Shown: positions 1,489 to 24,045 of the stretch, one piece after another
Numbering within the stretch: the stretch's first letter is position 1
How the letters are laid out: every line of letters starts with the position of its first letter
NCBI GenBank assembly: GCA_030668825.1
Contig: DAOVET010000013.1
Coordinates: 1-43,299 of the forward strand
Direction: 5' to 3'
Length of the DNA: 43,299 bases
Source of the DNA: Candidatus Heimdallarchaeota archaeon
GTDB taxonomy: Archaea > Asgardarchaeota > Heimdallarchaeia > Heimdallarchaeales > Heimdallarchaeaceae
Program-made: the position numbers and the translations under genes
The notes under the pieces: model-generated
What the model saw: only the letters and a program-made list of their open reading frames with translations
What the model was told of the DNA's origin: nothing
Databases searched by the model: none

Positions 1489-3498
1489 CTAGTTCAAATT
1501 AGATTTTCTCTTACAAATTCTAGTAACTGCAAACACTAAAACAAAAGCAGCAAGTATCAAACCTGACACTATACTAAATTCTCGTAGATGAGGAACCTTG
1601 TATTCAACGTATTCACAATTAGAATGAGTGCTGTTTAGTATTCCGTCACTAGCTACAATAGTATAGAAGTAGTAACCTTCTGAGGGAAGGGAATCAATAT
1701 AGGATGTTGAGCCAACAGTAGTTAGTGGAGTTAACCCTTCAACTGACCAGATATAGGTATCAGATCTATAGATATAATATTCTATTGCCCCGTCTATACT
1801 AGCCCATTCTAGAGAAATACTGCTTGAATCTGTAGGATTGGGTAGAATAGGAGCTAATTCAGGAGCGTCAAGGTCAGCAAACCTTACTTCGACATATTGG
1901 CAATTGGAATGCGAGCTGTTTCCAGCAAAGTTTCCAGCCACAACAACATAGTAGTAGAAGCCTTCAGACGATACAATATCGATATAATCACTTGAGGAAA
2001 CAGTAGCAATTGGTGTTAATCCCTCCACAGACCAGATGTAAGATGTGGAACGATAAACATAGTAAGTGGTTGCCCCTAGTACATAATTCCAATCTAGATG
2101 AATAGAAGTGAATTCAGTAGGATTAGGAACAATGAAAGCTAGTTCAGGATCAGCAAGAGGACCAGTGAAAAGTTTATAGAAGATATCCATATCTGTTCCA
2201 GCACCAGTATAATTAGTAGAATCATGCCACGTTATATACACATGCTCTGCAGAATCGACAGCAAGAGAAGGATACCAAGACCCACTTGTACTTTCGGTGG
2301 AAACTACTTCTGGAGTGGTCCAAGAGGAGGAAGAAGAATCCCAGCGTTTGTAAAAAATATCAATATCTGTTCCAGCATCAGCATAATTAGTTAGATCCAT
2401 CCAAGCTATATGCACTTTCCCTGCAAAATCAGTAGCAAGCGAAGGATAATTTGAATGACCAGCACTTTCTGTGGAAACAACTTCTGTAGTAGTCCAGGAT
2501 GAAGTTGAAGCATCCCAACGTTTATAGAAAATATCCATATCTAGATCACTCCCAGCATAAGCAGTTCCATCATACCAAGCAACATGCACATTCCCTAAAG
2601 TATCAGTAGCAAGAGAAGGATTAGAAGAAGCATCTGTACTCTCGGTAGAAACAACCTCTGTTGTTGTCCAGGAGGAGGTGGAAGAGTCCCAACGTTTATA
2701 AAAAATATCATTATCTATTCCACTCCCAGCATAAATAGTAAAATCTTCCCATGCAATATGAACAGTACCAGCAGAATCCACAGTAAGAGAAGGAAGGTAA
2801 GAATCACTTGTACTCTCAGTAGAAACAACCTCTGTTGTGGTCCATGAGGAGGAAGTAGCGTCAAAGCGTTTGTAAAAGATATCCCTATCTGTCCCACTTC
2901 CCGCATAAGCAGTTCCATCAGACCATGCTATGTGTACATGACCAGCAGAATCGACAGCAAGAGATGGTAACCAAGAATCTGCTGTACTTTCAGTTGAAAC
3001 GACTTCTGTTGTAGTCCACGAAGAGGTAGAAGCGTCCCAACGTTTATAGAAACTATCACAATTGGTTCCAGCACCAGCATAATTAGTATAGTCACTCCAA
3101 GCTATATGCACATTCCCAGTGGAATCAACTGCAAGAGAAGGATAGAAGGAATTATCTGTACTCTCAGTAGAAACAACTTCGATAATGGTCCATGAGGAAG
3201 AAGAAGAGTTCCAGCGTTTGTAGAAAATATCCCGATCTGTTCCAGCACCAGTATAATCAGTCTCATCTTCCCACGCTATGTGGATATTTCCTGCAGAATC
3301 GACAGCAAGAGAAGGATAACCAGAAAAATCTATACACTCGGTAGAAACAACCTCTGTTATATTCCATTTCCAAGTAGATTGAACAAAAGAATCTATGGTG
3401 TAATGATTATGGTTTTCATCTACTAGAGCTTGTGTGCTATTTATATTAAGCGAAGAAGTGCTTATTAAAAAACTAATAATGAGAACACTTAAGCTCAT
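1489..3498 (-). CDS. Secreted/surface protein: seven 58-aa repeats (probable 7-blade beta-propeller), two Fn3-like domains, C-terminal TM anchor
   Basis: Signal peptide; 7 x WTTTEVVSTES..PSLAVDS.G.VHIAW.D...DIFYKRW; two 'PELA.I.PNPT...W...GA..YY.YRS...YY..VA' domains; EF + hydrophobic helix + RICKRK tail. Confidence 0.85.
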   Translation of the reverse strand: MSLSVLIISFLISTSSLNINSTQALVDENHNHYTIDSFVQSTWKWNITEVVSTECIDFSGYPSLAVDSAGNIHIAWEDETDYTGAGTDRDIFYKRWNSSSSSWTIIEVVSTESTDNSFYPSLAVDSTGNVHIAWSDYTNYAGAGTNCDSFYKRWDASTSSWTTTEVVSTESTADSWLPSLAVDSAGHVHIAWSDGTAYAGSGTDRDIFYKRFDATSSSWTTTEVVSTESTSDSYLPSLTVDSAGTVHIAWEDFTIYAGSGIDNDIFYKRWDSSTSSWTTTEVVSTESTDASSNPSLATDTLGNVHVAWYDGTAYAGSDLDMDIFYKRWDASTSSWTTTEVVSTESAGHSNYPSLATDFAGKVHIAWMDLTNYADAGTDIDIFYKRWDSSSSSWTTPEVVSTESTSGSWYPSLAVDSAEHVYITWHDSTNYTGAGTDMDIFYKLFTGPLADPELAFIVPNPTEFTSIHLDWNYVLGATTYYVYRSTSYIWSVEGLTPIATVSSSDYIDIVSSEGFYYYVVVAGNFAGNSSHSNCQYVEVRFADLDAPELAPILPNPTDSSSISLEWASIDGAIEYYIYRSDTYIWSVEGLTPLTTVGSTSYIDSLPSEGYYFYTIVASDGILNSTHSNCEYVEYKVPHLREFSIVSGLILAAFVLVFAVTRICKRKSNLN
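2170..3367 (-). repeat. Intragenic tandem repeat, 7 x 174 bp (boundaries approximate)
   Basis: The gaaacaac(c/t)tc motif recurs at about 174-bp spacing and matches the 58-aa protein repeat. Confidence 0.85.
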
Positions 3499-3679: not shown

Positions 3680-4579
3680 ATGATTATTGAACAAAAGCGT
3701 CTACAAAATGCATGTATTTTAGAAGATGGTAGAAAACTGGTTTATGATATCTATGGTGCAATGGAGGGAACTCCTTACTTCTACTTTCATGGATATCCTA
3801 GTTCAAGAATAGAAGCAAGTTGCATTCATGAAAAAGCAGAAGAAAAAAACATCAAAATTATAGCTGTTGATAGACCAGGAATTGGTTTATCTGATTTTCA
3901 AAAAAATAGAAAGATTGTTGATTGGGCAGAAGATGTTTCAGAACTTGCAAATGAGCTTGGCTTCATGAAATTCGGAGTGATGGGTATGTCATCAGGAGCT
4001 CCATATGCTTTGGCTTGTGGATATAAAATTCCTGAAAAACTAAACAAAATCGTTCTTATCTCAGCTTTAGGAGGAGTGGATTTTAAACAACCAGGACTCA
4101 AAAACGATCATAAAGCTGCCTTTAGGGTTGCAGGAAGCCTTCCTTTTGTTTACAGATTTCTTCTCTTGTTATGCAGAATCCGTCATATCAAAGGAAAGAA
4201 TGCAGCCAAAAAATACTTTAGAATAAATTTCAAGCATCTAGCTCTAAAGGACCAAGAATTATTACAGAATCCAGACATTCTAGATGCGGTAGTCGAGTTT
4301 CAGTATGAATCATGTAGAAAAGGATTGAAGGGATTAGTATATGAAGCAAAATTGCTAGGAAGACCTTGGGGAATGAATTTAAGCACAATATCTAGTAACT
4401 TGAAAATCTATTTGTGGCATGGGACAGCTGATCTTGTAGCCCCAGTAACAGCGTCAAAAGAGATAGAAAGAATGTTACCTAAATCCATCGCTGATTACAA
4501 AGAAGATGAAGGGCACTTTTCTTTATTGTTTTATTATCATCCAGAAATATTAGAAGTACTTCAAAAAACAGAAAGATAA
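3680..4579 (+). CDS. Alpha/beta hydrolase
   Basis: FHGYP oxyanion motif, DRPGIG, GMSSG nucleophile elbow, WHGTAD, EGHF. Confidence 0.9.
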   Translation: MIIEQKRLQNACILEDGRKLVYDIYGAMEGTPYFYFHGYPSSRIEASCIHEKAEEKNIKIIAVDRPGIGLSDFQKNRKIVDWAEDVSELANELGFMKFGVMGMSSGAPYALACGYKIPEKLNKIVLISALGGVDFKQPGLKNDHKAAFRVAGSLPFVYRFLLLLCRIRHIKGKNAAKKYFRINFKHLALKDQELLQNPDILDAVVEFQYESCRKGLKGLVYEAKLLGRPWGMNLSTISSNLKIYLWHGTADLVAPVTASKEIERMLPKSIADYKEDEGHFSLLFYYHPEILEVLQKTER

Positions 4580-4623
4580 CCAGATGTTTTTTTGAGTTGT
4601 CAGAAAGTTGGGAGCAAGATTTG

Positions 4624-4657
4624 TCTTACCACACAAGTAATTAATTACGTGGTAAGA
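4624..4657. repeat. Family A palindrome, copy 3
   Basis: TCTTACCAC (4624-4632), acaagtaattaattac, GTGGTAAGA (4649-4657). Confidence 0.9.
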
Positions 4658-4770
4658 TTCTTATTCGATTTATTTTTGTTCGCTTTGGAAAAAAAGCAAT
4701 TTAAAGAGATTTCCATTCACATTCATTTGACAAACCTTATAGTTATTGGATTCATTAATATAATGATAGA

Positions 4771-5391
4771 ATGACAAAGATAGCAATCTATGTTTTTGAT
4801 GATGTAGAAGAGCTTGGTTTAGATATTGTCTATAATGTATTAAAGAAAACTAAAACACTTAAACAACACGGAATTCTTCCTATAGACCAACCATTGGAAG
4901 TAGATCTTCTTGCAAATGAGAAGTTAGTTATTGGTACAAAAGATAAGCAAATCACTCCACATCAAATTGGTTTAGATTTTACCGATTATGATATTCTCAT
5001 CATTCCAGGAGGAAAAGGAGTTGAAACTATTGTTCAAAATCAAGAATTTTTGGATAGGCTAAAAGAATTTGGTCAAGAAAAAATGGTCTGTTCAATTGGT
5101 TTAGGCACATTTGCTCTTGCTCTTGCCGGATTATTGAAAAACAAAAAAGCAACAACTCATCATAAACATTTTCTCAGGTTGCGAAAATATTGTAAGGTTG
5201 AAAATAAACGAATAGTTGTTTCTGATAAAATAATAACTGCAGGTGGTATGCTCTGTGCAGTAGATTTAGCAGAAAAAATACTGGAAATTTGTTATTCGAG
5301 AAGCATTGCTGATATTGTTTTAGAATATATAGAGGTTCAAAGAAAATCTAAGGGAATAGGTATAGTTCTAGGAGAGATAGACGAGGAATGA
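4771..5391 (+). CDS. DJ-1/PfpI (ThiJ/InhA-like) family protein, nucleophile Cys apparently absent
   Basis: IAIYVFDDVEEL, DILIIPGG, AGLL..KKATTH, IITAGG. SIGLG stands where SVCTG is usual. Confidence 0.85.
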   Translation: MTKIAIYVFDDVEELGLDIVYNVLKKTKTLKQHGILPIDQPLEVDLLANEKLVIGTKDKQITPHQIGLDFTDYDILIIPGGKGVETIVQNQEFLDRLKEFGQEKMVCSIGLGTFALALAGLLKNKKATTHHKHFLRLRKYCKVENKRIVVSDKIITAGGMLCAVDLAEKILEICYSRSIADIVLEYIEVQRKSKGIGIVLGEIDEE

Positions 5392-8730: not shown

Positions 8731-8784
8731 TGAGAAAATATCTTACCACAAAAAAATTAATTTTACGTTGTAAGATTTTCCTCA
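8731..8784. repeat. Family A palindrome, copy 5
   Basis: ATCTTACCAC (8740-8749), N17 ending TTTAC, GTTGTAAGAT (8767-8776); outer arms tgagaaa/tttcctca. Confidence 0.85.
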
Positions 8785-13556: not shown

Positions 13557-14318
13557 TTGGAACTAGAAGCAAGTAAGAACGAACAACTTACAATAAATAG
13601 ATTAAGATTTCTAGAAACAACCTCAATTCAATATAGTTACATAATTATGTTTGTAATCGGAGGATTAGTTCTGATATCTGGAATTATCTTATCTCAGTTG
13701 GATCTAAGTGGTGAAGCTGCTGGTAAAATTTTTTATCCTATAACAAGCATTGAACGTTTCTTAATCAAAATAATGTACTTCGGAGTTATCTTTTTCTTAT
13801 CTCTAAATTTCGTTAAAGTTAGCAAATGGTCGGAATGGGAAGAACCAGTTCCTATAGCCAGAAATATAACTAAAATTTCAGCAGTGTTCTCTTCTACCTG
13901 TCTGTTCATAATGAATATAGTCTACTACATTTACTATGATATCTTTAATTTCGAATATATGATAAGTATTGGAGGGGATTATGATGCATGGAGGAGGGGT
14001 CACATGATAGCAGGTGCCTTAGGTTTAGTCATATTGGTTTTCTTATGCTTGCTTATAGTTTCACTATTTGCAGGAATAATTGTAGAATTAATCCATAATA
14101 GAAATGTAAGAAGAATAGATTATAGACCAGCAATATTAGCAATAGCAATAGTAATTGTATATACATTCATGTTTTATGGAGGTAGAATTTCAGGTCGGCT
14201 TACTTATACTTGGGGTTGGAATGTTGGTTTATTTGTCTCCAGATTAGTACACGCAACACTTTTTTTCATAAATGGAACGATTTTTCTCCTTCTGGATATG
14301 AAGCAAAAGAAGAAATAA
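13557..14318 (+). CDS. Polytopic membrane protein, unknown function
   Basis: About six hydrophobic helices; TTG start with gagga upstream. Confidence 0.65.
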   Translation: MELEASKNEQLTINRLRFLETTSIQYSYIIMFVIGGLVLISGIILSQLDLSGEAAGKIFYPITSIERFLIKIMYFGVIFFLSLNFVKVSKWSEWEEPVPIARNITKISAVFSSTCLFIMNIVYYIYYDIFNFEYMISIGGDYDAWRRGHMIAGALGLVILVFLCLLIVSLFAGIIVELIHNRNVRRIDYRPAILAIAIVIVYTFMFYGGRISGRLTYTWGWNVGLFVSRLVHATLFFINGTIFLLLDMKQKKK

Positions 14319-14402
14319 GTGTTGTAAGGCAGGAGTTGATTTTTAAAATTTTTCCTCGAGTTTATAAATCAATTTGCAAATTAACTTGTTGGTGAAAGAC
14401 AC

Positions 14403-15557
14403 ATGGCTTCGTCTACATCCACGAAACAAGTAATAATAAGTAAAAACGACCAAAAAGATTTTTTGACAGAATGTGTTGATATTGCAATAGGAGAAGAAAC
14501 AGGATCTCCTTATATGATAGGACTAGCAGCTGAGAAAGGGATAAAGAAAGGGGATATAAACAGCTGGGAAGAATTAGCAGAACAATTTGGAGCAACAGAT
14601 CCAAATATATTTAGAGATAAATCAGTAATGTTTACAACAACAAAATGGGCACATGAATACTACGCAAAGCACCCAGGAACAGAAATGCAGGTAGCTGAAA
14701 CAGGAGGAACTACAGGGGCTCCTAAAAAAAACATACTTTTTGCAAATACCCTTAGAAACGACTTTGACAACATGGATTATTTTAGTCTTGATACAGATAC
14801 TTTCAATGTCTTAGCTAAAGTCTGTGAAGGTCAGTTCGAAGATTTTGGTATTCCTAGAGATTTAACCTACCTTGCAACTGTCCCTACAGGTCCCCACACT
14901 ATTGGTAAGTGGACTCTGAAGAGCTTTGAACGCGATTTCGCTAAATCCGTCTTTATGATAGACATGGACCCACGGTTTGTGAAAGTTGCAATGATGACAG
15001 ACCCCAAGATTGGTGGGATGTATATGCAACATTTGCAAGACCAAGTTGGACGTCTAGTCAAACAAGAATTTCCATTTATAACTGGTATGTTCACAACTGG
15101 TGTGCTCATCGAAAAGATGTTCCCACTGATCCAAAGTCTAAAAGAAAAAGGAAACCTTCAAGCTATCGTACATGGCGGAACACCCCTTTCTAATGAGACT
15201 CTAAAAATTCTCAGAGAAGATATGGGCTTGAAAGTTTGTGGGTTCTATGGCCAGTCACTTTTCGGTACTGCCTTCGAATCTCCGGATCATGAAGGGTATC
15301 ACATCGACTACTATCCCCATCCTCGTATGAACATGTTTGTTATTGATAATCCTACTAACATCTCTACTCGAGTTAACTATGGTGAACAAGGTACTGTTGT
15401 CAGCCAAAGAATCAGTCCTGAGACAGTAATTCCAGCTTTGATACAGACAGGTGATTTAGCTACTCTGATTAAACCAAAAGGTAAGTTTGCTTACGCTGAT
15501 GGAGTTCGAGATCCTCATAGAGACTTAACTGGTAATCAACAAATGGGCGTGTATTAG
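14403..15557 (+). CDS. EhpF/GriC-like adenylate-forming enzyme (ANL/PaaK-related superfamily)
   Basis: ETGGTTGAPK P-loop-like motif, PTGPH, IDMDPRFVK, HGGT, FYGQS, GDLA. Confidence 0.7.
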   Translation: MASSTSTKQVIISKNDQKDFLTECVDIAIGEETGSPYMIGLAAEKGIKKGDINSWEELAEQFGATDPNIFRDKSVMFTTTKWAHEYYAKHPGTEMQVAETGGTTGAPKKNILFANTLRNDFDNMDYFSLDTDTFNVLAKVCEGQFEDFGIPRDLTYLATVPTGPHTIGKWTLKSFERDFAKSVFMIDMDPRFVKVAMMTDPKIGGMYMQHLQDQVGRLVKQEFPFITGMFTTGVLIEKMFPLIQSLKEKGNLQAIVHGGTPLSNETLKILREDMGLKVCGFYGQSLFGTAFESPDHEGYHIDYYPHPRMNMFVIDNPTNISTRVNYGEQGTVVSQRISPETVIPALIQTGDLATLIKPKGKFAYADGVRDPHRDLTGNQQMGVY

Positions 15558-15577
15558 ATCCTACAATATTCATTTTT

Positions 15578-15596
15578 TCAACCTTAAGGAGGTTGA
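15578..15596. repeat. Family B palindrome, copy 1
   Basis: TCAACCT-TAAGG-AGGTTGA followed by a T-rich tract; contains the stop codon of 15584..16291. Confidence 0.9.
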
Positions 15597-16291
15597 TTAT
15601 TTCTTTTTCTTTTAATGATTACTCGAAAGATTGCCACACAAATGAATAAGATAATAACTGAGCTGAATTCTCCACTTGCTAGATCTAATCCTCCAATAAA
15701 TTCTACATCTATAGTATATTCTATTTCATATACATCTATGTAACCATAAAAAGACTTTTCCCTTAAAATACCTGTATCTTCATGTACTTTGATGTCATTG
15801 GTAAATTCATCAGCCCCAGTTCCAGTACGAGTTTTTATTACTAAATTACCTCCTTTACGTGATATCTCATACTTTGGAGGGTTCTCTATGTTTTGTTTAA
15901 AGTACTCATAGTAAGTAAATGATTCTCCGCCAATAACTCTGATAATAGGGTAGATGTAGGAACCTATTAGCTGGCACATAGTTGCTGAAATTACAGATGC
16001 TGAAATTGGAGATGTTGAAACAGCAGAATAATCAAAGTATGCACCATAGTCTCCTTCATTTAGAGTTACATCTTCCACATCTTGAAGTACTGTTATGGTA
16101 ATTTTACTCGTATCAGTTGTTATAGGATTAAGATGTAGATTTTTTAAAACATAATTCCATTCTAGAACAGTTCCTGCTACAAGATCAGATGAATAATAGT
16201 TGCCATTATCTAGAGCTTCTACTAAGTTAAAGCTACTCATTACTGAAAGCATTAGAAAGAATACTAGAATTTTTACTTTTGTAATTCGCAT
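15584..16291 (-). CDS. Secreted protein with C-terminal TM/sorting tail
   Basis: Signal peptide ending VEA; GEF + hydrophobic helix + KRKR. Confidence 0.75.
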   Translation of the reverse strand: MRITKVKILVFFLMLSVMSSFNLVEALDNGNYYSSDLVAGTVLEWNYVLKNLHLNPITTDTSKITITVLQDVEDVTLNEGDYGAYFDYSAVSTSPISASVISATMCQLIGSYIYPIIRVIGGESFTYYEYFKQNIENPPKYEISRKGGNLVIKTRTGTGADEFTNDIKVHEDTGILREKSFYGYIDVYEIEYTIDVEFIGGLDLASGEFSSVIILFICVAIFRVIIKRKRNNQPP

Positions 16292-16544
16292 AGCTAAGAA
16301 TATTTACAGCTTTTATAAGCTTATTGTAAATTCTTCATCTTAAGACGCTTAAAGTGATTCTTTATCCCCCTAAAATTTATAAACTGCAATTCTTATAACA
16401 TAAGGAATTCTTAAAGATAAATCTAGAATTTGATTAAAACTGTCCAAAAGATTCTAGCTATAGTTGCATTAGTCTATACTATAAACGATTTAAAAAATCA
16501 AGAATGAATTTACATAAAATCATTTATGATTTAGCTTCTCACAA

Positions 16545-16566
16545 AGGTTGATTTTTCTTTCTTTTT
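16545..16566. repeat. Family B right half (copy 2)
   Basis: AGGTTGATTTTTCTTTCTTTTT, just 3' of the minus-strand gene ending at 16574. Confidence 0.6.
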
Positions 16567-16573
16567 ATGGGTT

Positions 16574-16975
16574 TTATACTGTGCTAGTTTGTGTTGTTTT
16601 TGTTTGCCCAACTAGTGACCATATTCCTCCTGATAGAATAAACAATCCTCCTGCTCCTCCAGTTATGAAACCGATAATTATTAGTATTACTGCTATTATT
16701 GTAATATCCTTAATCCACGGACCTGTTTTCATTTTCTTCTGTAACCAATCCCATACCAGGAAGAGAACTAATATTCCTAAAAGAAACATTATCAAACCAT
16801 TCAACCAATAGATTCCGGTGAAAGAAAGAAATGACATTCCTCCTACTACTTCCAAGCCTCTAGCAGCTTTCGCTTCAGCGATAATGGTTAATAAACCCTG
16901 TATCACAAGAATAAATCCACCAGTCAATGAATTTATTCTTCCGCAAGTTAATCCGCATGTTCTTTCATTTATCAT
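16574..16975 (-). CDS. Small membrane protein
   Basis: Three to four Gly-rich hydrophobic helices. Confidence 0.65.
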   Translation of the reverse strand: MINERTCGLTCGRINSLTGGFILVIQGLLTIIAEAKAARGLEVVGGMSFLSFTGIYWLNGLIMFLLGILVLFLVWDWLQKKMKTGPWIKDITIIAVILIIIGFITGGAGGLFILSGGIWSLVGQTKTTQTSTV

Positions 16976-17081
16976 ATAAATTCATTAATTATAAGGTATA
17001 TAAATTTACAGCAAAACACCTATCTTAATTAGCTAACAGAGCTCAACAATCTTATAGATAGAGTTGTAAAGAGCTTGGTTT

Positions 17082-17100
17082 TCAACCTTAGGGAGATTGA
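17082..17100. repeat. Family B palindrome, copy 3
   Basis: TCAACCT-TAGGG-AGATTGA + tttttcttttc. Confidence 0.9.
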
Positions 17101-17135
17101 TTTTTCTTTTCTTTTGTTGATTTATTTCTTACAGA

Positions 17136-17549
17136 TTACAATATTCTGACGAATTTCTTATATTCTTTCGGAGTTTTTTTCAATAATTTCTCATCTGCCG
17201 TGATCAATTTCCCTTCTCTTATTCTTGCTAGAGCTACACATACCGAATCATACAAGGAGAGTTCACTCTTCATAGATATTTCTATAGACTTACCTGCTAG
17301 TTCTTTGTCAAATGTGAAGAATTCTATTCCATAATTTATTATTATATCAAAAATCCTTTCTATTTCTTCTTGATTATGTAACTTGATATATTTTAGAGCA
17401 TTCAAAACTTCGTATAAAATCAGATTTGGTGCAATTAAATCAAATTTTCCTTTAATATAATTGTCCCTTATTTCTATTGCAGATTCAGATTTTATTTCAT
17501 TTACGAACCATTTAATTAATACACTTGCATCAATCACTAGGAGTTCCAT
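17136..17549 (-). CDS. vapC: VapC PIN-domain toxin
   Basis: VIDASVLIKW, YEVLNAL, SLYDS, LITAD acidic PIN residues. Confidence 0.9.
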   Translation of the reverse strand: MELLVIDASVLIKWFVNEIKSESAIEIRDNYIKGKFDLIAPNLILYEVLNALKYIKLHNQEEIERIFDIIINYGIEFFTFDKELAGKSIEISMKSELSLYDSVCVALARIREGKLITADEKLLKKTPKEYKKFVRIL

Positions 17550-17775
17550 ATCTATTATCTCTCCAATTGCGGATTAGTTCTGTTGAATCCCACTTTGAGG
17601 GAGCATCTTTTCTCAATTCCTCGTTTGAAAGAAGAGCTTCTGCAATATTTTTATTTTCTTCCTGATTTATTATCTTTAAAATAACTTCTCTAAGCTCTTC
17701 ACTCCAGTTAATATGGCTTAATTTCTTCATTTTCCTCTTTATCTCATCAGGTACTCGAACACTAATTGATGTCAT
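17530..17775 (-). CDS. vapB: VapB-type ribbon-helix-helix antitoxin
   Basis: MTSISVRVPDEIKRKM...NWSEELRE...STELIR..RD; overlaps the vapC start. ATG 17775 preferred over 17838, which falls inside a family B site. Confidence 0.85.
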   Translation of the reverse strand: MTSISVRVPDEIKRKMKKLSHINWSEELREVILKIINQEENKNIAEALLSNEELRKDAPSKWDSTELIRNWRDNRYGTPSD

Positions 17776-17834
17776 TGTATATACGGTATGACATGTCGTA
17801 CATATATTTTTCTGTTCGAAATATTCTCGTTTTT

Positions 17835-17853
17835 TCAACCTTAGGGAGGTTGA
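17835..17853. repeat. Family B palindrome, copy 4
   Basis: TCAACCT-TAGGG-AGGTTGA + gttttcttttc; upstream aatattc..tttttt is shared with copy 1. Confidence 0.9.
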
Positions 17854-17908
17854 GTTTTCTTTTCTTATTTGATTTGTAAAACTAATAGAAACTATTATTT
17901 ATGATTAT

Positions 17909-18370
17909 ATGTATATTCTCTTGAGAAACATGACTATATCTAACCAAGAGGAAGCTCTCTCAAAGTTAGTTGAATCTTTAAAGAACAACTTATCTCCACT
18001 ATTTAAAGATTATAATGTATCTTTTGCCTATTTTAGTGGTTCCTGGGTTAGAGGTCAGCAAGGTGTTTTAAGCGATATAGATATCTTTGTTTCTTTCCCT
18101 TCTCTTGATACAATTTCCCCTAAAGAAATAGTAATTCTTTTTAGTGATTTCTCCCGAAAAGCAAGTGAGGTTACAAAGCAAGATAATCTCGAAATCACAA
18201 TTCTAGAGAGAACACCTCTACATGTACAATTTCAAGCAATTAAAGATGGGATATTGCTTTATGAGGAAACCAAAAATGTTCGAATAAAATTCATAGAAAA
18301 TCTCTTAAAATACTATTATGATCACAAAATTTGGTTTCAAAACTATCTTAGTCAAGCAGTAGACGGATGA
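17909..18370 (+). CDS. mntA: Minimal nucleotidyltransferase (MntA-type antitoxin)
   Basis: FAYFSGSWVRG....SDIDI motif; AIKDGILLYE. Confidence 0.85.
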   Translation: MYILLRNMTISNQEEALSKLVESLKNNLSPLFKDYNVSFAYFSGSWVRGQQGVLSDIDIFVSFPSLDTISPKEIVILFSDFSRKASEVTKQDNLEITILERTPLHVQFQAIKDGILLYEETKNVRIKFIENLLKYYYDHKIWFQNYLSQAVDG

Positions 18371-18376
18371 AAATTT

Positions 18377-18805
18377 ATGGCAGTTAATTCTGATTTCCTT
18401 AAAGAAAAATTAGCTTATAGCAAAAAATACATTGAAAGACTCAGGAGAATTATTGAGATTTCTGAAAAAATATTTCTAGATGATTTTTCTCTTCAACTAG
18501 AGTCTGAAAGGATTTTTGAAGTTATTTCCCAAATAATGCTTGATATCTGTACTCATATTATCGCTCATTCAAGCGAAACTCCTCCCTCTTCATATTCTGA
18601 TTGCATGAATAAATTAGTAGATGTTGGGGTTATAAAAGAGGATGAATCAAATAATTTTATTAATATTATAAAAATGAGAAATTTGCTGGTTCATCAATAT
18701 GGAATAATTAATCTAGAAATTCTTTTTGCAAGTTTAAAAATGTTAGATTCTGACTTCGTAAAATTCAAAGAAATAATACTCTCTTGGATAGAGAAGCAAA
18801 AGTAA
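18377..18805 (+). CDS. hepT: HEPN (DUF86/HepT-type) RNase toxin
   Basis: ER.FE...Q..LDI, P.SYSD, RNLLVHQY (R-X4-H-x-Y). Confidence 0.88.
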   Translation: MAVNSDFLKEKLAYSKKYIERLRRIIEISEKIFLDDFSLQLESERIFEVISQIMLDICTHIIAHSSETPPSSYSDCMNKLVDVGVIKEDESNNFINIIKMRNLLVHQYGIINLEILFASLKMLDSDFVKFKEIILSWIEKQK

Positions 18806-18839
18806 TCCAGACAAACAAGAACTTAAAATCTAATTCTGA

Positions 18840-18854
18840 CAACAGGGAGGTTGA
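18840..18854. repeat. Family B palindrome, copy 5 (3-nt internal deletion)
   Basis: CAAC---AGGGAGGTTGA + tttttcctttt, between convergent hepT and vapC. Confidence 0.8.
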
Positions 18855-18867
18855 TTTTTCCTTTTAT

Positions 18868-19269
18868 CTATTTAAGCTGTAAAACATCTACATTATATTT
18901 TGTTGCTATTTTTGCTTGTTTAATATCTGAAGTAAGTAATTGTAGATTTTCTGCTAATGACAAAACTATATACAAAATATCATATACAGGAACTCTTTCT
19001 TGAATTGCAATTTTAAAAGATTCTTCAATCAAATGTTTTGATTCATGTATAACTAAAACTCCATCAAATAGAATCTTTAGAGCAGTATATTTTTCAAAAG
19101 CATCTTTTGCTTTCTTTTTATATATATAATTGTCTTTCCAGATTGCATTTGTGACCTCTATAAGAACAAAATCCAGACTTTGACCTTTCATTATATATGG
19201 TTTCACTTTTTCCCAATCTGGTTCTTGTAGTAAATATTTAGACAGAATTGAAGCATCAATTACTATCAC
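18868..19269 (-). CDS. vapC: VapC PIN-domain toxin
   Basis: IVIDASILSK, EVTNAIW, VYDILY, LLTSD. Confidence 0.9.
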   Translation of the reverse strand: MIVIDASILSKYLLQEPDWEKVKPYIMKGQSLDFVLIEVTNAIWKDNYIYKKKAKDAFEKYTALKILFDGVLVIHESKHLIEESFKIAIQERVPVYDILYIVLSLAENLQLLTSDIKQAKIATKYNVDVLQLK

Positions 19270-19486
19270 GTTCTTCCCTCACTATCTTCTTAGCTGTTCC
19301 TATAGGTGAAGAGGATGTTTTTTTTATCATTTCATGTGCTTTGTCTAATTTCTTTTTTCCTTCAATTTCTCTTATTCTTTTCTTGATGTATTCTCTTAAT
19401 TCTTCGCTCCATTCTACTTGATCTTTTAATTCTTTCATCTTTTCTCTTAATTCTTCTGGAATCTTAAACGACATGGTAGTACTCAT
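19256..19486 (-). CDS. vapB: VapB-type RHH antitoxin
   Basis: TTMSFKIPEELREKM...VEWSEELRE...IVREERD; overlaps vapC. Confidence 0.85.
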   Translation of the reverse strand: MSTTMSFKIPEELREKMKELKDQVEWSEELREYIKKRIREIEGKKKLDKAHEMIKKTSSSPIGTAKKIVREERDSN

Positions 19487-19621
19487 GGTATCACCATATA
19501 GTATACTTGTAAGTAATACTTAAAGATTTTCTTGGTAAATTTGTTTTCGGAATTTAAGAAACATGCAAAGCATTGCTTATTATTAGAAGCTATAATATAC
19601 TTTATTACATTATAATTAGTT

Positions 19622-19840
19622 ATGAGTAAAACAACGATTCAAATCGACAATGAACTTAAAGTTATGTTAGAACGACTTAAAATTCATCCTAGGGAGCCTT
19701 ATTCCGATGTCATTGCTCGTTTGCTTTTTCTTAATTCTGAATCCACTGAAGAAATCCTCAAAACATCAGACAAAGTTCAAAGGGAAAAGATTGGAGAACT
19801 TTGGGATAATAAAGACGATGAAGTTTGGAACAATGTGTGA
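19622..19840 (+). CDS. Probable RHH antitoxin without a cognate toxin
   Basis: TTIQI..ELK..L..LK.HPRE.Y.DVI.RL N-terminus; WDNKDDEVWN acidic C-terminus. Confidence 0.65.
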   Translation: MSKTTIQIDNELKVMLERLKIHPREPYSDVIARLLFLNSESTEEILKTSDKVQREKIGELWDNKDDEVWNNV

Positions 19841-19863
19841 AATTAGTGGATAGTGCTTATTTT

Positions 19864-20226
19864 CTATCTTAACCCATTAGCAACAGAAACTGAACAAAGT
19901 ATGTGTTTATCTGAATAAATGACTGCATATTGTTCATTGAGATCTAACAAAGTAAGTAACTCCATGTAGAGAGTTCTTAATTTCAGAGGATTAAGTTGAA
20001 TTAATGCTAAAGTTATGTTAGATTTCTTATCTAGTATATCGATATTACAGCCATACGAATGGTCTTCCACTAGAAATTCAGCTATTATCTTTCGCCAATT
20101 CAACACAGAACTAGATGGCTTAGATTTGTAAAATTCTAAAATGAAACTCTCTGTTTCTAGTATCCTTTCCCCATTTGAAAAGAGAAGATCAGCAATCTTA
20201 TGAATCTCATCTTGAAACCTATCCAT
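19864..20226 (-). CDS. Hypothetical protein
   Basis: 120-aa ORF filling the intergenic space; no motif recognised. Confidence 0.5.
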   Translation of the reverse strand: MDRFQDEIHKIADLLFSNGERILETESFILEFYKSKPSSSVLNWRKIIAEFLVEDHSYGCNIDILDKKSNITLALIQLNPLKLRTLYMELLTLLDLNEQYAVIYSDKHILCSVSVANGLR

Positions 20227-20302
20227 CAGTACATCAGTATGTCAAAACTATAAAAAAACCAAGAATAATTGATGTCTAGTCTCTCTTTCAAATCGTTGTA
20301 TC

Positions 20303-21169
20303 TTATTCATCAATTGTATGTATGTGTTTGTTAATCATTTTTGCAAACTCTACTACACCTGGTTTAATATGCATGAAATTGTAATCAGGAATTTCGATCA
20401 GAGTACTATTTTCTATTAAATTACATACTTCTCTTGTTTTTTCTATTCTATGATATTTATCATCTGAAGTAGTAAAAATAAAGATAGGACATTTTATTCT
20501 TTTATAATCTTCTGAAGCATTCCATCTTCTCATTTTTGAACATCTTTTCCATCTCCCAACATCAATGTTTGTTACTCGTTCATAATATACTTTCTTCTGA
20601 AAACCAGCAGCTACTCGAGTTCTGAGATATCTTCTGGCTATTCGCTTTCCAACCTTTTCTAAAAGGGAAGTAGGTAGCATAAATGCTAATTGTGTAGATA
20701 GATTAGGATAGCTCGTACGAACAAATGGTCCAATGAAAAAACAATTCTTAGGCATAACCCACTTTTGGCTTACACAATGTGCAACATAATATACTCCAAA
20801 ACTAGATCCAATGAAAATAACATTCTCTTCTTTGAGTTTTAGATAATGTATAGTTTCAACAATATCTAAGGCTATACGCTGAACAGTGCAGTGCTTTTTT
20901 TTCTTCAGATTAATAGAAGGTTTCTCTCTTGAATCTATAATAACAAGATCATAGTCTTTGTACAATTCATCCCATAGATCGGACCAAGAATAGACTCCTG
21001 GACCTAATCCTTGAATAAAGAAAATAGTTGGTTTGTTAGAACCAGCGTGTTTTGTTGAATAAAAACAAAAGACCTCTTGCTCATCAGACATGAGAATTTG
21101 CTCTTTAACTGATTCTTTTATGAAAACCATTTCTTGAGGAAATTCTTCATTTAATGAGTTAGACATCAT
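20303..21169 (-). CDS. Alpha/beta hydrolase
   Basis: FIQGLG, GSSFG elbow, IKCP, C-terminal His. Confidence 0.8.
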   Translation of the reverse strand: MMSNSLNEEFPQEMVFIKESVKEQILMSDEQEVFCFYSTKHAGSNKPTIFFIQGLGPGVYSWSDLWDELYKDYDLVIIDSREKPSINLKKKKHCTVQRIALDIVETIHYLKLKEENVIFIGSSFGVYYVAHCVSQKWVMPKNCFFIGPFVRTSYPNLSTQLAFMLPTSLLEKVGKRIARRYLRTRVAAGFQKKVYYERVTNIDVGRWKRCSKMRRWNASEDYKRIKCPIFIFTTSDDKYHRIEKTREVCNLIENSTLIEIPDYNFMHIKPGVVEFAKMINKHIHTIDE

Positions 21170-21220
21170 TTTCTTTACTCTCTAAAAGCTCATATATAAT
21201 TCTTAATTTCTGTGTATGAG

Positions 21221-22644: not shown

Positions 22645-24045
22645 ATTGTCATGTAGTCATATTAAAGGTACAATGAATCACTTTGGAAGACACTTTTAGA
22701 ACAATTATTACGGGAGCTTTTATAGGGAATTCTAGGGAAAACTGTGATGACCAAAGTACTACGAGTAGAATGCATAGAACTCCCCTATCGCCAAGCTTTG
22801 AGTACACTTTGTCATCAAGTGAAAAATCTCTATAATCGAGCGAACTATCTGGTAAAACAATCTTTGAACAAGAAGCACAAGCTGCTAGTATACTATGATC
22901 TTAATACTTTACTCAAGGAAGAAGAGTGTTATCGAGTCCTTCCAGCTCACACAGCTCAACACACCCTTAAACTCCTTTGTAGGAATTGGAAGGGATATTT
23001 TCAAGCGAAAAAGGAGTGGAAGAAGAATTCCGCAGCGTTTTTTGCTATGCCCCACCCACCCAACTACAAGGCGAAAGATGGAGAAGTGGTGGCAATCTTT
23101 ACGAATCAACAAGCGAGACTAAGAAATGGATGGCTAGTCCTTCCTAAGAAAGTAGGGTTTTAATATAAAACCCGATTAACAGCTCGTACCAAGTTGAAAG
23201 AGGTGAGAATCGTTCCAAGACGAGTAGGCTATACCCTAGAACTAGTTTATGAGAAAGTTTTACCTAAACAACGAAAACGACTAACCAGAAAAGGAGCGAT
23301 CGATTTAGGGTCTATCAATCTAGTGACCTTTGTGGATAACCTTGGCACTCAACCAATTGTTATCAAGAATCACGGGAAAGGAATAAAGAGTATCATTCAG
23401 TATTATTTGAAAAAACAGACACAATTAAGATCACAATATGTCCAACAGCAAAGAAAACAACTGAAAAAGCAGAATAGATTAACTTATGGTCCAGCTTATT
23501 ATATTCTTCGAGAGAAATGGCGCAAAAAACTCAAAGATGCCCTCCACAAACTCACCAAGTATCTGGTAGACTTGTGGGTAGAACGGAACTTGCATGAAGT
23601 CATTATCGGCTACAATGAGAAATGGAAACAAAATGTTCATTTCTGGAAAAAGATTACTCAGATATTTGTTTCGATTCCCTTCATGAAACTCATCAACCAG
23701 CTGAAATACAAAGCAGCTGAACATGGGATAAAAATTGAACTCATCCCTGAACAATATACTTCTAAAAGCAGTTTTCTGGATAATGAGTTTCCCAAGTTTA
23801 GAGAAAAGTATGCTGGACGAAGAATTGAACGAGGATTATTTCGTTCTGCTCAAGGTTTTCTCATCAATGCTGACGTGAATGCTGCTTATAACATTTTAGT
23901 CAAAAGCGATCCGAAAGCACTGCCTAAGCGGAGTGTGAACGGGGTAGGAGGATACGTGATGTATCCACGTAGAGTGAGTGTTGACCCACAATGACCTCTA
24001 CAAAAGAAGTTCAACAACTCTTGTTTAATATGACAAGATGACAAT
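22645..24045 (+). mobile_element. Non-autonomous tnpB-only element bounded by 22-bp terminal inverted repeats
   Basis: Left attgtcatgtagtcatattaaa (22645-22666) matches the reverse complement of right tttaatatgacaagatgacaat (24024-24045) at 20/22. Encloses only tnpB. Confidence 0.7.
22747..23994 (+). pseudogene. tnpB: TnpB RNA-guided nuclease with a single in-frame TAA at 23161-23163
   Basis: The two ORFs are in the same frame. KNLYNRANY, RuvC-I AIDLG, IIGYN..WKQ, EQYTSKSSFLD, RuvC-III NADVNAAYNI. Confidence 0.9.

Follow-up and report, generated by a model that had tools for sequence, protein, structure and literature searches.

How did a row of small gene units come to lie behind a single gene of an archaeal chromosome, each unit set off from the next by the same short palindrome in the same orientation? 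The locus that raises this question belongs to a metagenome-assembled genome of Candidatus Heimdallarchaeota archaeon (GCA_030668825.1). We analysed positions 1-43,299 of the forward strand of its contig DAOVET010000013.1; this whole stretch of 43,299 nucleotides (nt) is hereafter called "the window". An array, rich in toxin–antitoxin modules, begins ~20 nt past the stop codon of a gene for an EhpF-like enzyme (hereafter called the "anchor gene"). Five + strand copies of a boundary site between 15.57 and 18.87 kb, three full and two reduced to the right half, split it into intervals of one unit each. An earlier note on this DNA had proposed an integron-like gene-capture array with a minimal site, served by a recombinase in trans. 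In our judgement, the locus is likely to be a genus-specific, recombination-built gene-cassette array with an att-like site of ~36 nt, forming a flexible hotspot in an Asgard chromosome. What is new here is the genus-wide variable array with a hairpin and T-run as its boundary; related kinds, namely integron arrays and accretion at gene 3′ ends, are already known.

Five directional sites divide the array into single units

Each site consists of a short T-run, the palindrome TCAACCT-TARGG-AGGTTGA and the tail TTTTTCTTTTCTT. The 19-mer TCAACCTNNNNNAGGTTGA, searched with up to two mismatches, matched at 15578, 17082 and 17835, all on the + strand. By chance, 0.30 matches are expected, and none of 100 shuffles reached three. 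A covariance model of the site, built on 38 aligned copies, recovered all five copies on the + strand. Copy 1 (15570..15613, E=7.7e-8) has the hairpin TCAACCT-TAAGG-AGGTTGA at 15578-15596 and a T-rich tail; copy 3 (17074..17117, E=2.1e-8) has a hairpin at 17082-17100, in which the right arm AGATTGA carries one mismatch, and a T-tail; and copy 4 (17827..17870, E=4.4e-10) has a perfect hairpin at 17835-17853 and a T-tail. In copy 2 (16525..16568, E=3.8e-4), unrelated sequence replaces the left arm, and AGGTTGA is retained at 16545-16551. Copy 5 (18828..18871, E=6.1e-4) has lost the left arm and retains AGGGAGGTTGA at 18844-18854. The right half and T-tail of these two half copies occupy 16543-16557 and 18846-18860, respectively.

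The five same-orientation copies listed in the earlier note are thus confirmed, as three full sites and two without the left arm. Its spacing of 549, 753 and 1001 nt is reproduced when the right halves are measured from start to start, the first interval being about 955-967 nt. The palindrome of its 19-bp repeat also holds, while the length does not: the repeated unit spans ~36-44 nt, comprising the T-run, the hairpin and a 13-nt T-tail. A decayed sixth boundary lies at 19487..19621 (near 19490-19620), before a DUF7557 antitoxin gene, and its motif is no longer recognisable. The window sequence from 19553/19584 to 19844 aligns with the start of a DUF7557-MazF unit of other species (2107-2398 in locus L044 and 1471-1731 in locus L041; loci of relatives are numbered L, and genomes G), where the motif opens that unit.

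In the window's own genome (G000; 2.76 Mb, 138 contigs, GC 33%, completeness 90.6%), this is the sole locus where the 19-mer occurs with a T-tail: the 8 other loose matches have one or two mismatches and no T-tail, and the covariance model gave 5 hits over the genome, every one on the + strand of the window contig. A dispersed palindrome, such as a miniature inverted-repeat transposable element (MITE) or a repetitive extragenic palindrome (REP), would have many intergenic copies in both orientations, whereas the 5 hits share one locus and one strand. A CRISPR-like (clustered regularly interspaced short palindromic repeats) array was also rejected, because the repeats lie 550-1200 nt apart and enclose genes.

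Probable exchange of units between species

What lies between the sites? Unit 1 (15584..16291, minus strand) encodes a 235-amino-acid (aa) protein with an N-terminal signal-like segment, a C-terminal hydrophobic segment and a basic tail, and unit 2 (16574..16975, minus strand) encodes a 133-aa hydrophobic, membrane-like protein. Neither has a family match, and the labels "secreted" and "membrane" come from reading the translations. Unit 3 (17136..17775, minus strand) is a vapBC module, with a PIN toxin at 17136-17549 (Pfam PIN, 1.6e-15) and a VapB antitoxin at 17530-17775 (NCBIfam VapB, 4.1e-14). Unit 4 (17909..18805) lies on the + strand, opposite to most units, and comprises mntA (17909-18370; Pfam Polbeta, 2.3e-12) and hepT (18377-18805; Pfam HepT-like, 2e-24). 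Unit 5 (18868..19486, minus strand) is a second vapBC, with PIN at 18868-19269 (Pfam PIN, 4.3e-9) and VapB at 19256-19486 (NCBIfam VapB, 4.2e-22). The vapBC, inverted mntA-hepT and second vapBC of the earlier note are borne out by these matches. Finally, unit 6 (19622..19840, + strand) is an orphan DUF7557/VapB-like antitoxin of 72 aa (Pfam DUF7557, 9.8e-6). It is without the MazF/PemK-like partner that accompanies it in L042, where the pair measures 72+115 aa (PemK 22.0 bits, below the cut-off of 23.1).

We compared this array with open reading frame (ORF) and motif maps of 11 further loci, and with five more arrays behind the same anchor gene. The mapped arrays are rows of 2-6 same-strand motifs, 0.55-7 kb apart. 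The recurrent units include vapBC (81+137 aa), the 133-aa membrane protein, mntA-hepT, a second VapB-PIN pair (70+135 aa), a VapB(76 aa)-PIN pair, DUF7557-MazF on the + strand, a DUF6144 fragment, ParE pairs and anchored secreted proteins; hydrolases and zinc-ribbon proteins are also found in the relatives' arrays. The order of the units is variable. The membrane protein precedes vapBC in the window, L035 and L038, but lies three units behind it in L044, and the first units of eight genomes are of seven different kinds. The membrane protein of unit 2 occurs in four other species, at other array positions, and units homologous to unit 5 occur in L036, L037 and L042.

The breakpoints and identities of the shared units point in the same direction. 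All-against-all blastn yielded 30 high-scoring segment pairs within arrays, and 57 of 120 ends lay within 35 nt of a motif, as compared to 5.8% of positions; the motif, being conserved, itself aligns and inflates this count. The vapBC unit at 17079-17815 of the window is 90% identical in L044 from one motif to the next, and its neighbours differ on either side; a 90% identical unit with differing neighbours is also present in L035. The window and L041/L042 share the mntA-hepT unit at 86% identity, compared with only 71-72% for the anchor gene. Moreover, in one genome of the sister genus (g2), where the anchor protein is 61-65% identical, a vapBC unit together with its perfect site reaches 79% identity. 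These identities read as unit transfer between lineages, even between genera. The directional array of exchangeable units described in the earlier note is thus supported: content and order differ among species, and homology breaks at the motif.

Could the sites be terminators or insulators only, in a vertically inherited cluster that differs between species through loss? The hairpin with its T-run is terminator-like, a + strand gene precedes copies 1 and 5, and the wobble pairs described below favour folding of the T-tail strand. However, copies 2-4 follow no + strand gene, the motif is present at no other locus of G000, and loss alone cannot yield the observed differences in unit order. In addition, units resemble each other more closely than the core flanks do, and another genus has one of them. 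We regard this explanation as improbable. The earlier note had named two findings that would speak against an exchangeable array: single motif copies at the 3′ ends of conserved genes, and an array that is syntenic and invariant among relatives. Neither was observed, because array content, order and unit identities vary and the motif stays at one locus.

A slot behind the anchor gene in one genus

How widely is the site distributed? Among 185,579 prokaryote species, each represented by one genome, a motif scan returned 14 stretches; 13 carry the title Candidatus Heimdallarchaeota archaeon, and the remaining one is called "uncultured archaeon". We then considered three nested sets of genomes: the window genus (g1; 25 genomes including G000), the family (31 genomes) and wider relatives (61 genomes). 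With at most one mismatch, the pattern matched 13 of the 61 genomes, while the reversed control pattern matched 2. These 13 are G000, 10 of the 24 other g1 genomes, one genome of the sister genus and a single-mismatch match in another family of the class. The covariance model detected the motif in 20 of the 25 g1 genomes, with nearly all hits on one contig (rarely two) and one strand per genome. In g2 it gave one strong hit and a few weak ones, and it found no motif in two closed g4 genomes and none in g5. A metagenome scan returned 6 stretches: four are further arrays or sites of the same kind, L102 overlaps one of those, and one is a chance match (51% GC). No credible attP site was found on viruses or plasmids; the viral-contig scan gave a single match, which falls inside coding sequence on a contig of 38% GC. 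The stretches fetched from relatives reached a contig end in 4 of 11 cases, and arrays therefore mark spots where assemblies stop.

The anchor gene of the window (14403..15557, + strand) encodes a 384-aa protein ending ...QQMGVY*, an EhpF-like adenylate-forming enzyme of the ANL superfamily (PDB sequence match to EhpF, E=4.7e-15; weak AMP-binding Pfam hit). EhpF is a truncated adenylate-forming enzyme. A search with the last 135 aa as the query matched the anchor gene in 23 of the 31 family genomes; in those loci that were checked, the match extended over the full length. In g1, the motif lies 18-30 nt past the anchor stop in 14 of the 16 available gene ends by pattern matching, and the remaining 2 have a degenerate copy by eye. 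The anchor ends of four other genera have a plain T-run only (6/6), and in the 4 loci of those genera that were extended, the motif is absent within 15 kb downstream. Because the other genera have the plain T-run at this position, it looks as if the hairpin was inserted into an ancestral oligo-T terminator, appearing jointly with the array.

The internal sites of the relatives' arrays retain traces of this slot. To the left of the hairpin, a remnant of the anchor 3′ end and its spacer, 25 to ~100 nt long, is significant in 12 of 43 internal sites; the other 31 share only the ~36 nt, and none of the 4 internal sites of the window has a remnant. The remnants often match the species-specific sequence of the resident anchor (L038 and L041), and one in L042 matches another species' version. 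Furthermore, two small arrays of g2 that lie away from the anchor gene still have anchor remnants. Therefore, at least some insertions hit the anchor-proximal site and duplicated the gene end. Judged from these sequences, the remnant pattern would fit accretion at an att site in a gene 3′ end better than an attI/attC arrangement.

Anatomy of the boundary site

In the 38-copy alignment, all units have in common a few T's followed by the 19-nt palindrome and the 13-nt tail, ~36 nt in total. Unit-specific sequence begins sharply on both sides, 13 nt past the hairpin and at the left edge of the hairpin. The GAGGTTG columns and much of the tail are conserved at 90% or more, the left arm less so. 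In about 16 copies only the right half remains, and the break falls at the loop or where the right arm begins; this excess is partly due to ascertainment because the copies were first found via the right half. Essentially no left-only copies exist: among five left-only pattern hits, four have a mutated right half and one lies outside any array.

The arms pair perfectly in 12 of the 38 copies. Another 12 copies have one or two non-Watson-Crick pairs, of which 11 are G.T on the + strand, one is G.T on the minus strand and two are neither, representing about five independent variant types. The excess of G.T pairs on the + strand indicates that the folding strand is the T-tail strand, which would also suit a + strand terminator hairpin. 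In genome G004, the palindrome is maintained with different arms (AATCAAC-TGGGAG-GTTGATT), and the loop variants are genome-specific and mostly uniform inside one genome. When the sequence after 55 sites and before 39 was binned at 70 nt, GC, TA and GT skew showed no gradient.

The site also enters the coding sequences. Several unrelated anchored or secreted proteins end with a K/R-rich stretch followed by xQPP*, which is coded on the minus strand through the tail and the right arm, with the stop codon in the loop. Such ends lie at 15584-15613 in the window, 4382-4411 in L040, 2105-2140 in L041, 4657-4692 in L035, 5149-5175 in L099 and 221-244 in L105. The site thus supplies the basic C-terminal tails of these proteins, and the boundary falls in the last codons. 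As the earlier note had observed, copy 1 provides the final codons and the stop of the minus-strand ORF at 15584-16291, which closes with ...KRKRNNQPP*.

Two other roles of the site were considered and rejected. The CAT (ATG on the minus strand) found 6 nt to the left of many hairpins might suggest a ribosome-binding site or 5′ leader of the minus-strand genes; it belongs to the spacer copied from behind the anchor gene and is no conserved start. A promoter role was rejected, as each unit is preceded by an AT-rich region of its own, whose distance from the motif varies between 60 and 250 nt.

How the array may grow

We propose that two sites recombine, so that a circle carrying one site would loop out with the unit. 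Recombination between the circle and a resident site would then insert the unit, with a site on each side. Such loop-out and reinsertion would keep the orientation of the site constant, regardless of gene direction. Insertion at the anchor-proximal site would sometimes duplicate the anchor end, leaving remnants at what become the older boundaries. The hairpin and the T-run probably also terminate + strand transcription of the anchor gene and insulate the units; this role is compatible with both an enzyme acting on the site and homologous recombination.

Which machinery recombines the sites? We lean, with a little less than even confidence, towards a site-specific recombinase that is supplied in trans and acts on a 7-5-7 (or 6-7-6) core, and place it ahead of homologous recombination. 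We favour a dedicated enzyme because the core is palindromic with an asymmetric centre, the edges are sharp, half sites occur, the motif is restricted to one locus and the centre variants are genome-specific.

A number of observations weigh against this preference, in addition to the ascertainment of the half sites and the inflated count of alignment ends mentioned above. First, the hairpin is without covariation support: 82.3% of the cells are paired, and shuffles give an equal value. The conservation of hairpin and tail does not clearly exceed that of the anchor remnant beside them (84% versus 78%, p=0.09). Second, the remnants vary in length (25-100 nt), which suits homologous recombination or decay better than one fixed crossover. 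Third, twenty sequencing runs contain all or part of the stretch; in four partial ones (X12-X15), compared over 14000-21200 and consisting of low-depth contigs, no excision or empty-site joint, skipped unit or circle junction was found. The loose ends in these sets, at 15568, 17191, 18899, 19802 and 19836, are each seen in a single contig. At 15568, the end of another species' anchor gene is joined to the first site of the window, and at 19836, within unit 6, a contig of run X13 diverges from the window sequence from this point on.

Finally, the enzyme is not coded at the locus. Pfam detected no recombinase or transposase domain in any of the 14 window proteins, nor in the array proteins scanned, which numbered 56 of the 85 ORFs of at least 60 aa listed from the 11 relatives' loci. 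We searched G000 with the profiles PF00589, PF00239, PF01797, PF01548, PF07282 and PF01609. PF00589 had no match in this genome, which is 90.6% complete, and the control was positive in 14 of 14 named genomes; the Y1 (PF01797), IS110 and DDE_1 families also had no match. In g1, PF00589 is present in 13 of the 25 genomes, where the matches are sporadic, mostly on short contigs, not orthologous and never near the motif. The 15 recombinase loci that we examined contained no site sequence. The XerC/D-like protein of G001 occurs in 7 of the 31 family genomes, none of them among the 6 of best quality, and a conserved Xer-type tyrosine recombinase was not found in the family. A linked integrase or XerA, for which the earlier note had suggested a scan, was not found in or beside the arrays examined.

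Three paralogous small serine recombinases of ~250 aa are encoded elsewhere in G000 (C90:26216-26944, C80:4478-5179 and C29:24409-25119; L058-L060) and are possible helper candidates. They are core genes, present in 29 of the 31 family genomes with up to 98% identity, and they do not track the array, because they are also present in genera without arrays.

The main alternative to a dedicated enzyme is homologous recombination only. Here, the repeat would be the terminator region of the anchor gene, copied at each Campbell-type insertion, and the host machinery would use repeats of 36-130 bp, with no dedicated enzyme or site. We consider this a serious, if less probable, explanation. The variable lengths of the remnants and their frequent match to the resident species-specific gene agree with it, as do the lack of a linked or co-distributed recombinase, the homogenised motif variants inside genomes and the conservation of the hairpin, which is not significantly better than that of the neighbouring remnant. 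The G.T wobbles of the T-tail strand would suit an RNA terminator hairpin. In contrast, the ~36 nt shared by 31 of the 43 internal sites is short for efficient exchange, the shared segment has sharp edges that stay constant, and the right-half copies break at the loop. Other genera end the same gene with the T-run alone and have no array, and G004 maintains the palindrome with alternative arms.

Each unit could instead be a small non-autonomous transposon with 7-bp inverted ends (AGGTTGA...TCAACCT), the units lying head to tail in a duplicated 5-bp target, TAGGG. Each unit is indeed flanked by TAGGG with inverted 7-mers as its ends, and the right-half copies resemble lone left ends. This would nevertheless require every insertion to strike the same five bases beside an existing end, and no copy lies elsewhere in G000. 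None of the transposase families searched (DDE_1, IS110 and Y1) is represented in this genome, and the TnpB-like genes, including that at 23680-23895 of the window, have unrelated ends. We judge this explanation to be very improbable. The TnpB-like elements, with ~24 matches in G000, were also rejected as a source of the site, since the ends of the window copy (22744-23994) are unrelated to the motif.

Assuming an enzyme in trans, we further entertain, as a rather doubtful proposal, that the locus represents an independent second invention of the integron principle in Asgard archaea. A non-IntI enzyme supplied in trans would act on a ~36-nt site with a 7-5-7 core, which would fold on one strand, and cassettes collected behind a housekeeping gene would be exchanged across species and genera. 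If the sites truly recombine, then a compact gene-capture system, needing neither attC nor IntI, would exist near the eukaryote root. It would widen the range of ways to pool accessory genes, which here are mostly toxin–antitoxin modules and surface proteins, and a hunt for its enzyme could begin with a site that is very small and well defined. Under homologous recombination, the locus would be a clean natural case of a terminator-sized repeat organising a flexible island. The array also provides a practical marker of strain variation for Heimdallarchaeota metagenomes.

Relation to known systems

Is the locus an integron? The attC site of an integron is an imperfect palindrome, roughly 55-141 nt long, in which box R'' pairs with R' and L'' with L', and some bases are extrahelical. 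Integron arrays and clusters of attC sites lacking integron-integrases (CALINs) resemble the present locus in that they form a single chromosomal array with same-orientation structured sites between units of ~0.5-1.2 kb, which are rich in toxin–antitoxin modules and exported proteins, and in that some ORFs end inside the site. In contrast, the present site is a 19-nt single hairpin with a T-run. No larger fold was found around it: in ~100-nt folds of five sites, on both strands, only the 7-bp stem with its 5-nt loop formed, with Z from -0.4 to -2.9. Here there is also neither IntI nor attI, the array begins in the 3′ region of a metabolic gene, some sites have a gene remnant and the units face both ways. 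The locus is integron-like in behaviour, yet it is not an integron. The earlier claim of an integron-like array with a recombinase in trans therefore holds for the behaviour and fails for the identity, as an attC-type fold is missing and this genome has no match to IntI or PF00589; a recombinase acting on the 19-mer is at most a candidate, and homologous recombination between the repeats would explain much of the evidence alike.

We also weighed a true integron remnant, in which the repeats would be attC sites of a CALIN with IntI encoded elsewhere. Apart from the shared architecture, the palindrome contains AAC...GTT. The site consensus TTTCAAC...GTTGATT fits the core motifs RYYYAAC/GTTRRRY at 6/7 on each side (GTTGAKT fits GTTRRRY at 6/7), and GTTGAGT of copy 4 fits at 7/7; such matches of short AT-rich motifs are weak evidence. 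The study of archaeal integrons by Ghaly et al. 2022 (PMC9668308) reports that they are mostly CALINs, that they are enriched in Asgard genomes and that their cassettes are rich in toxin–antitoxin and signal-peptide proteins. However, the Heimdallarchaeia in Data S1 part 1 of that study belong to other orders, Hodarchaeales and JABLTI01. The single 7-bp stem in 19 nt, without an R''-L''/L'-R' structure on either strand, the units facing both directions, the first site lying in the 3′ region of a metabolic gene rather than at an attI beside intI, and the absence of a PF00589 match in G000 make this explanation extremely unlikely.

Accretion without an integrase at the end of a gene offers a closer comparison. 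In staphylococci, arrays of staphylococcal cassette chromosome (SCC) and pseudo-SCC elements form at rlmH (orfX), and in Streptococcus thermophilus, cis-mobilizable elements (CIMEs) accrete at fda, in each case at an att site in the gene 3′ end. Such elements are arranged in tandem, with direct repeats that can include the gene end; at least some elements of the row, or a helper element, encode the recombinase, and those lacking one probably rely on an enzyme supplied in trans. The present array likewise has a fixed slot at the 3′ end of a conserved gene and, in relatives, repeats that sometimes carry remnants of the gene end. It differs in that the units are only 0.55-1.2 kb long, with one gene or gene pair each, no recombinase-bearing unit was found in the arrays and the host is an archaeon; moreover, 31 of 43 boundaries share the hairpin site only, with no gene remnant. 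Flexible islands and cassette rows anchored at tRNA genes similarly line up exchangeable single-gene units, without an integrase, behind a conserved gene whose 3′ end is copied in the boundary repeats. Here, in contrast, the anchor is a protein-coding gene, and the palindrome and T-run are not part of it.

The pdif modules of Acinetobacter plasmids are bounded by 28-bp XerC/XerD sites (11-6-11) in alternating orientation, and they are small and often hold toxin–antitoxin genes. The likeness to the present array lies in these small, often toxin–antitoxin modules and in the short inverted-arm sites, and the pdif recombinase is encoded elsewhere. Unlike pdif, the sites here are 7-5-7 and share one orientation, and no conserved Xer-type recombinase was found in the family.

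For Asgard archaea, the available part of a survey of Heimdallarchaeum mobile elements describes aloposons at tRNA genes, with no mention there of "integron" or "cassette" (PMC8813620). Two further studies deal with other Asgard elements and with variable, toxin–antitoxin-rich hotspots in ANME-1, in the available parts without such a site (PMC11529989, PMC13385816). A literature search, with the supplements of bioRxiv preprints outside its scope, found no description of the motif or the array.

Flanks of the array and other features of the window

On the right, the array adjoins a conserved gene for a 120-aa protein with no family match (19864..20226, minus strand). This gene adjoins the array in 4 of the loci examined, and alpha/beta-hydrolase and amidohydrolase genes come next. 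In L091 (G004:C16), the alpha/beta-hydrolase gene sits between two sites, at 3754-4798. The right edge of the array is not fixed, because this gene, which flanks the array in the window, is bounded by two sites in L091.

Between the amidohydrolase gene and the next conserved gene, a TnpB-like gene is split into two ORFs of 139 and 266 aa (22744-23994, + strand). In the related species of L035, no TnpB-like insertion was found at the corresponding position. To the left of the array lies a second, unrelated palindrome family of ~39 nt, TCTTACCACACAA...TTTACGTGGTAAGA, perhaps a "family A" to the family B of the earlier note, with intergenic copies at 565-603, 1390-1428 and 4624-4662 and a partial copy near 8734-8763. 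In the same region, six tandem repeats of 174 nt (58 codons) occupy 2172-3341, within a 669-aa ORF on the minus strand (1489-3498).

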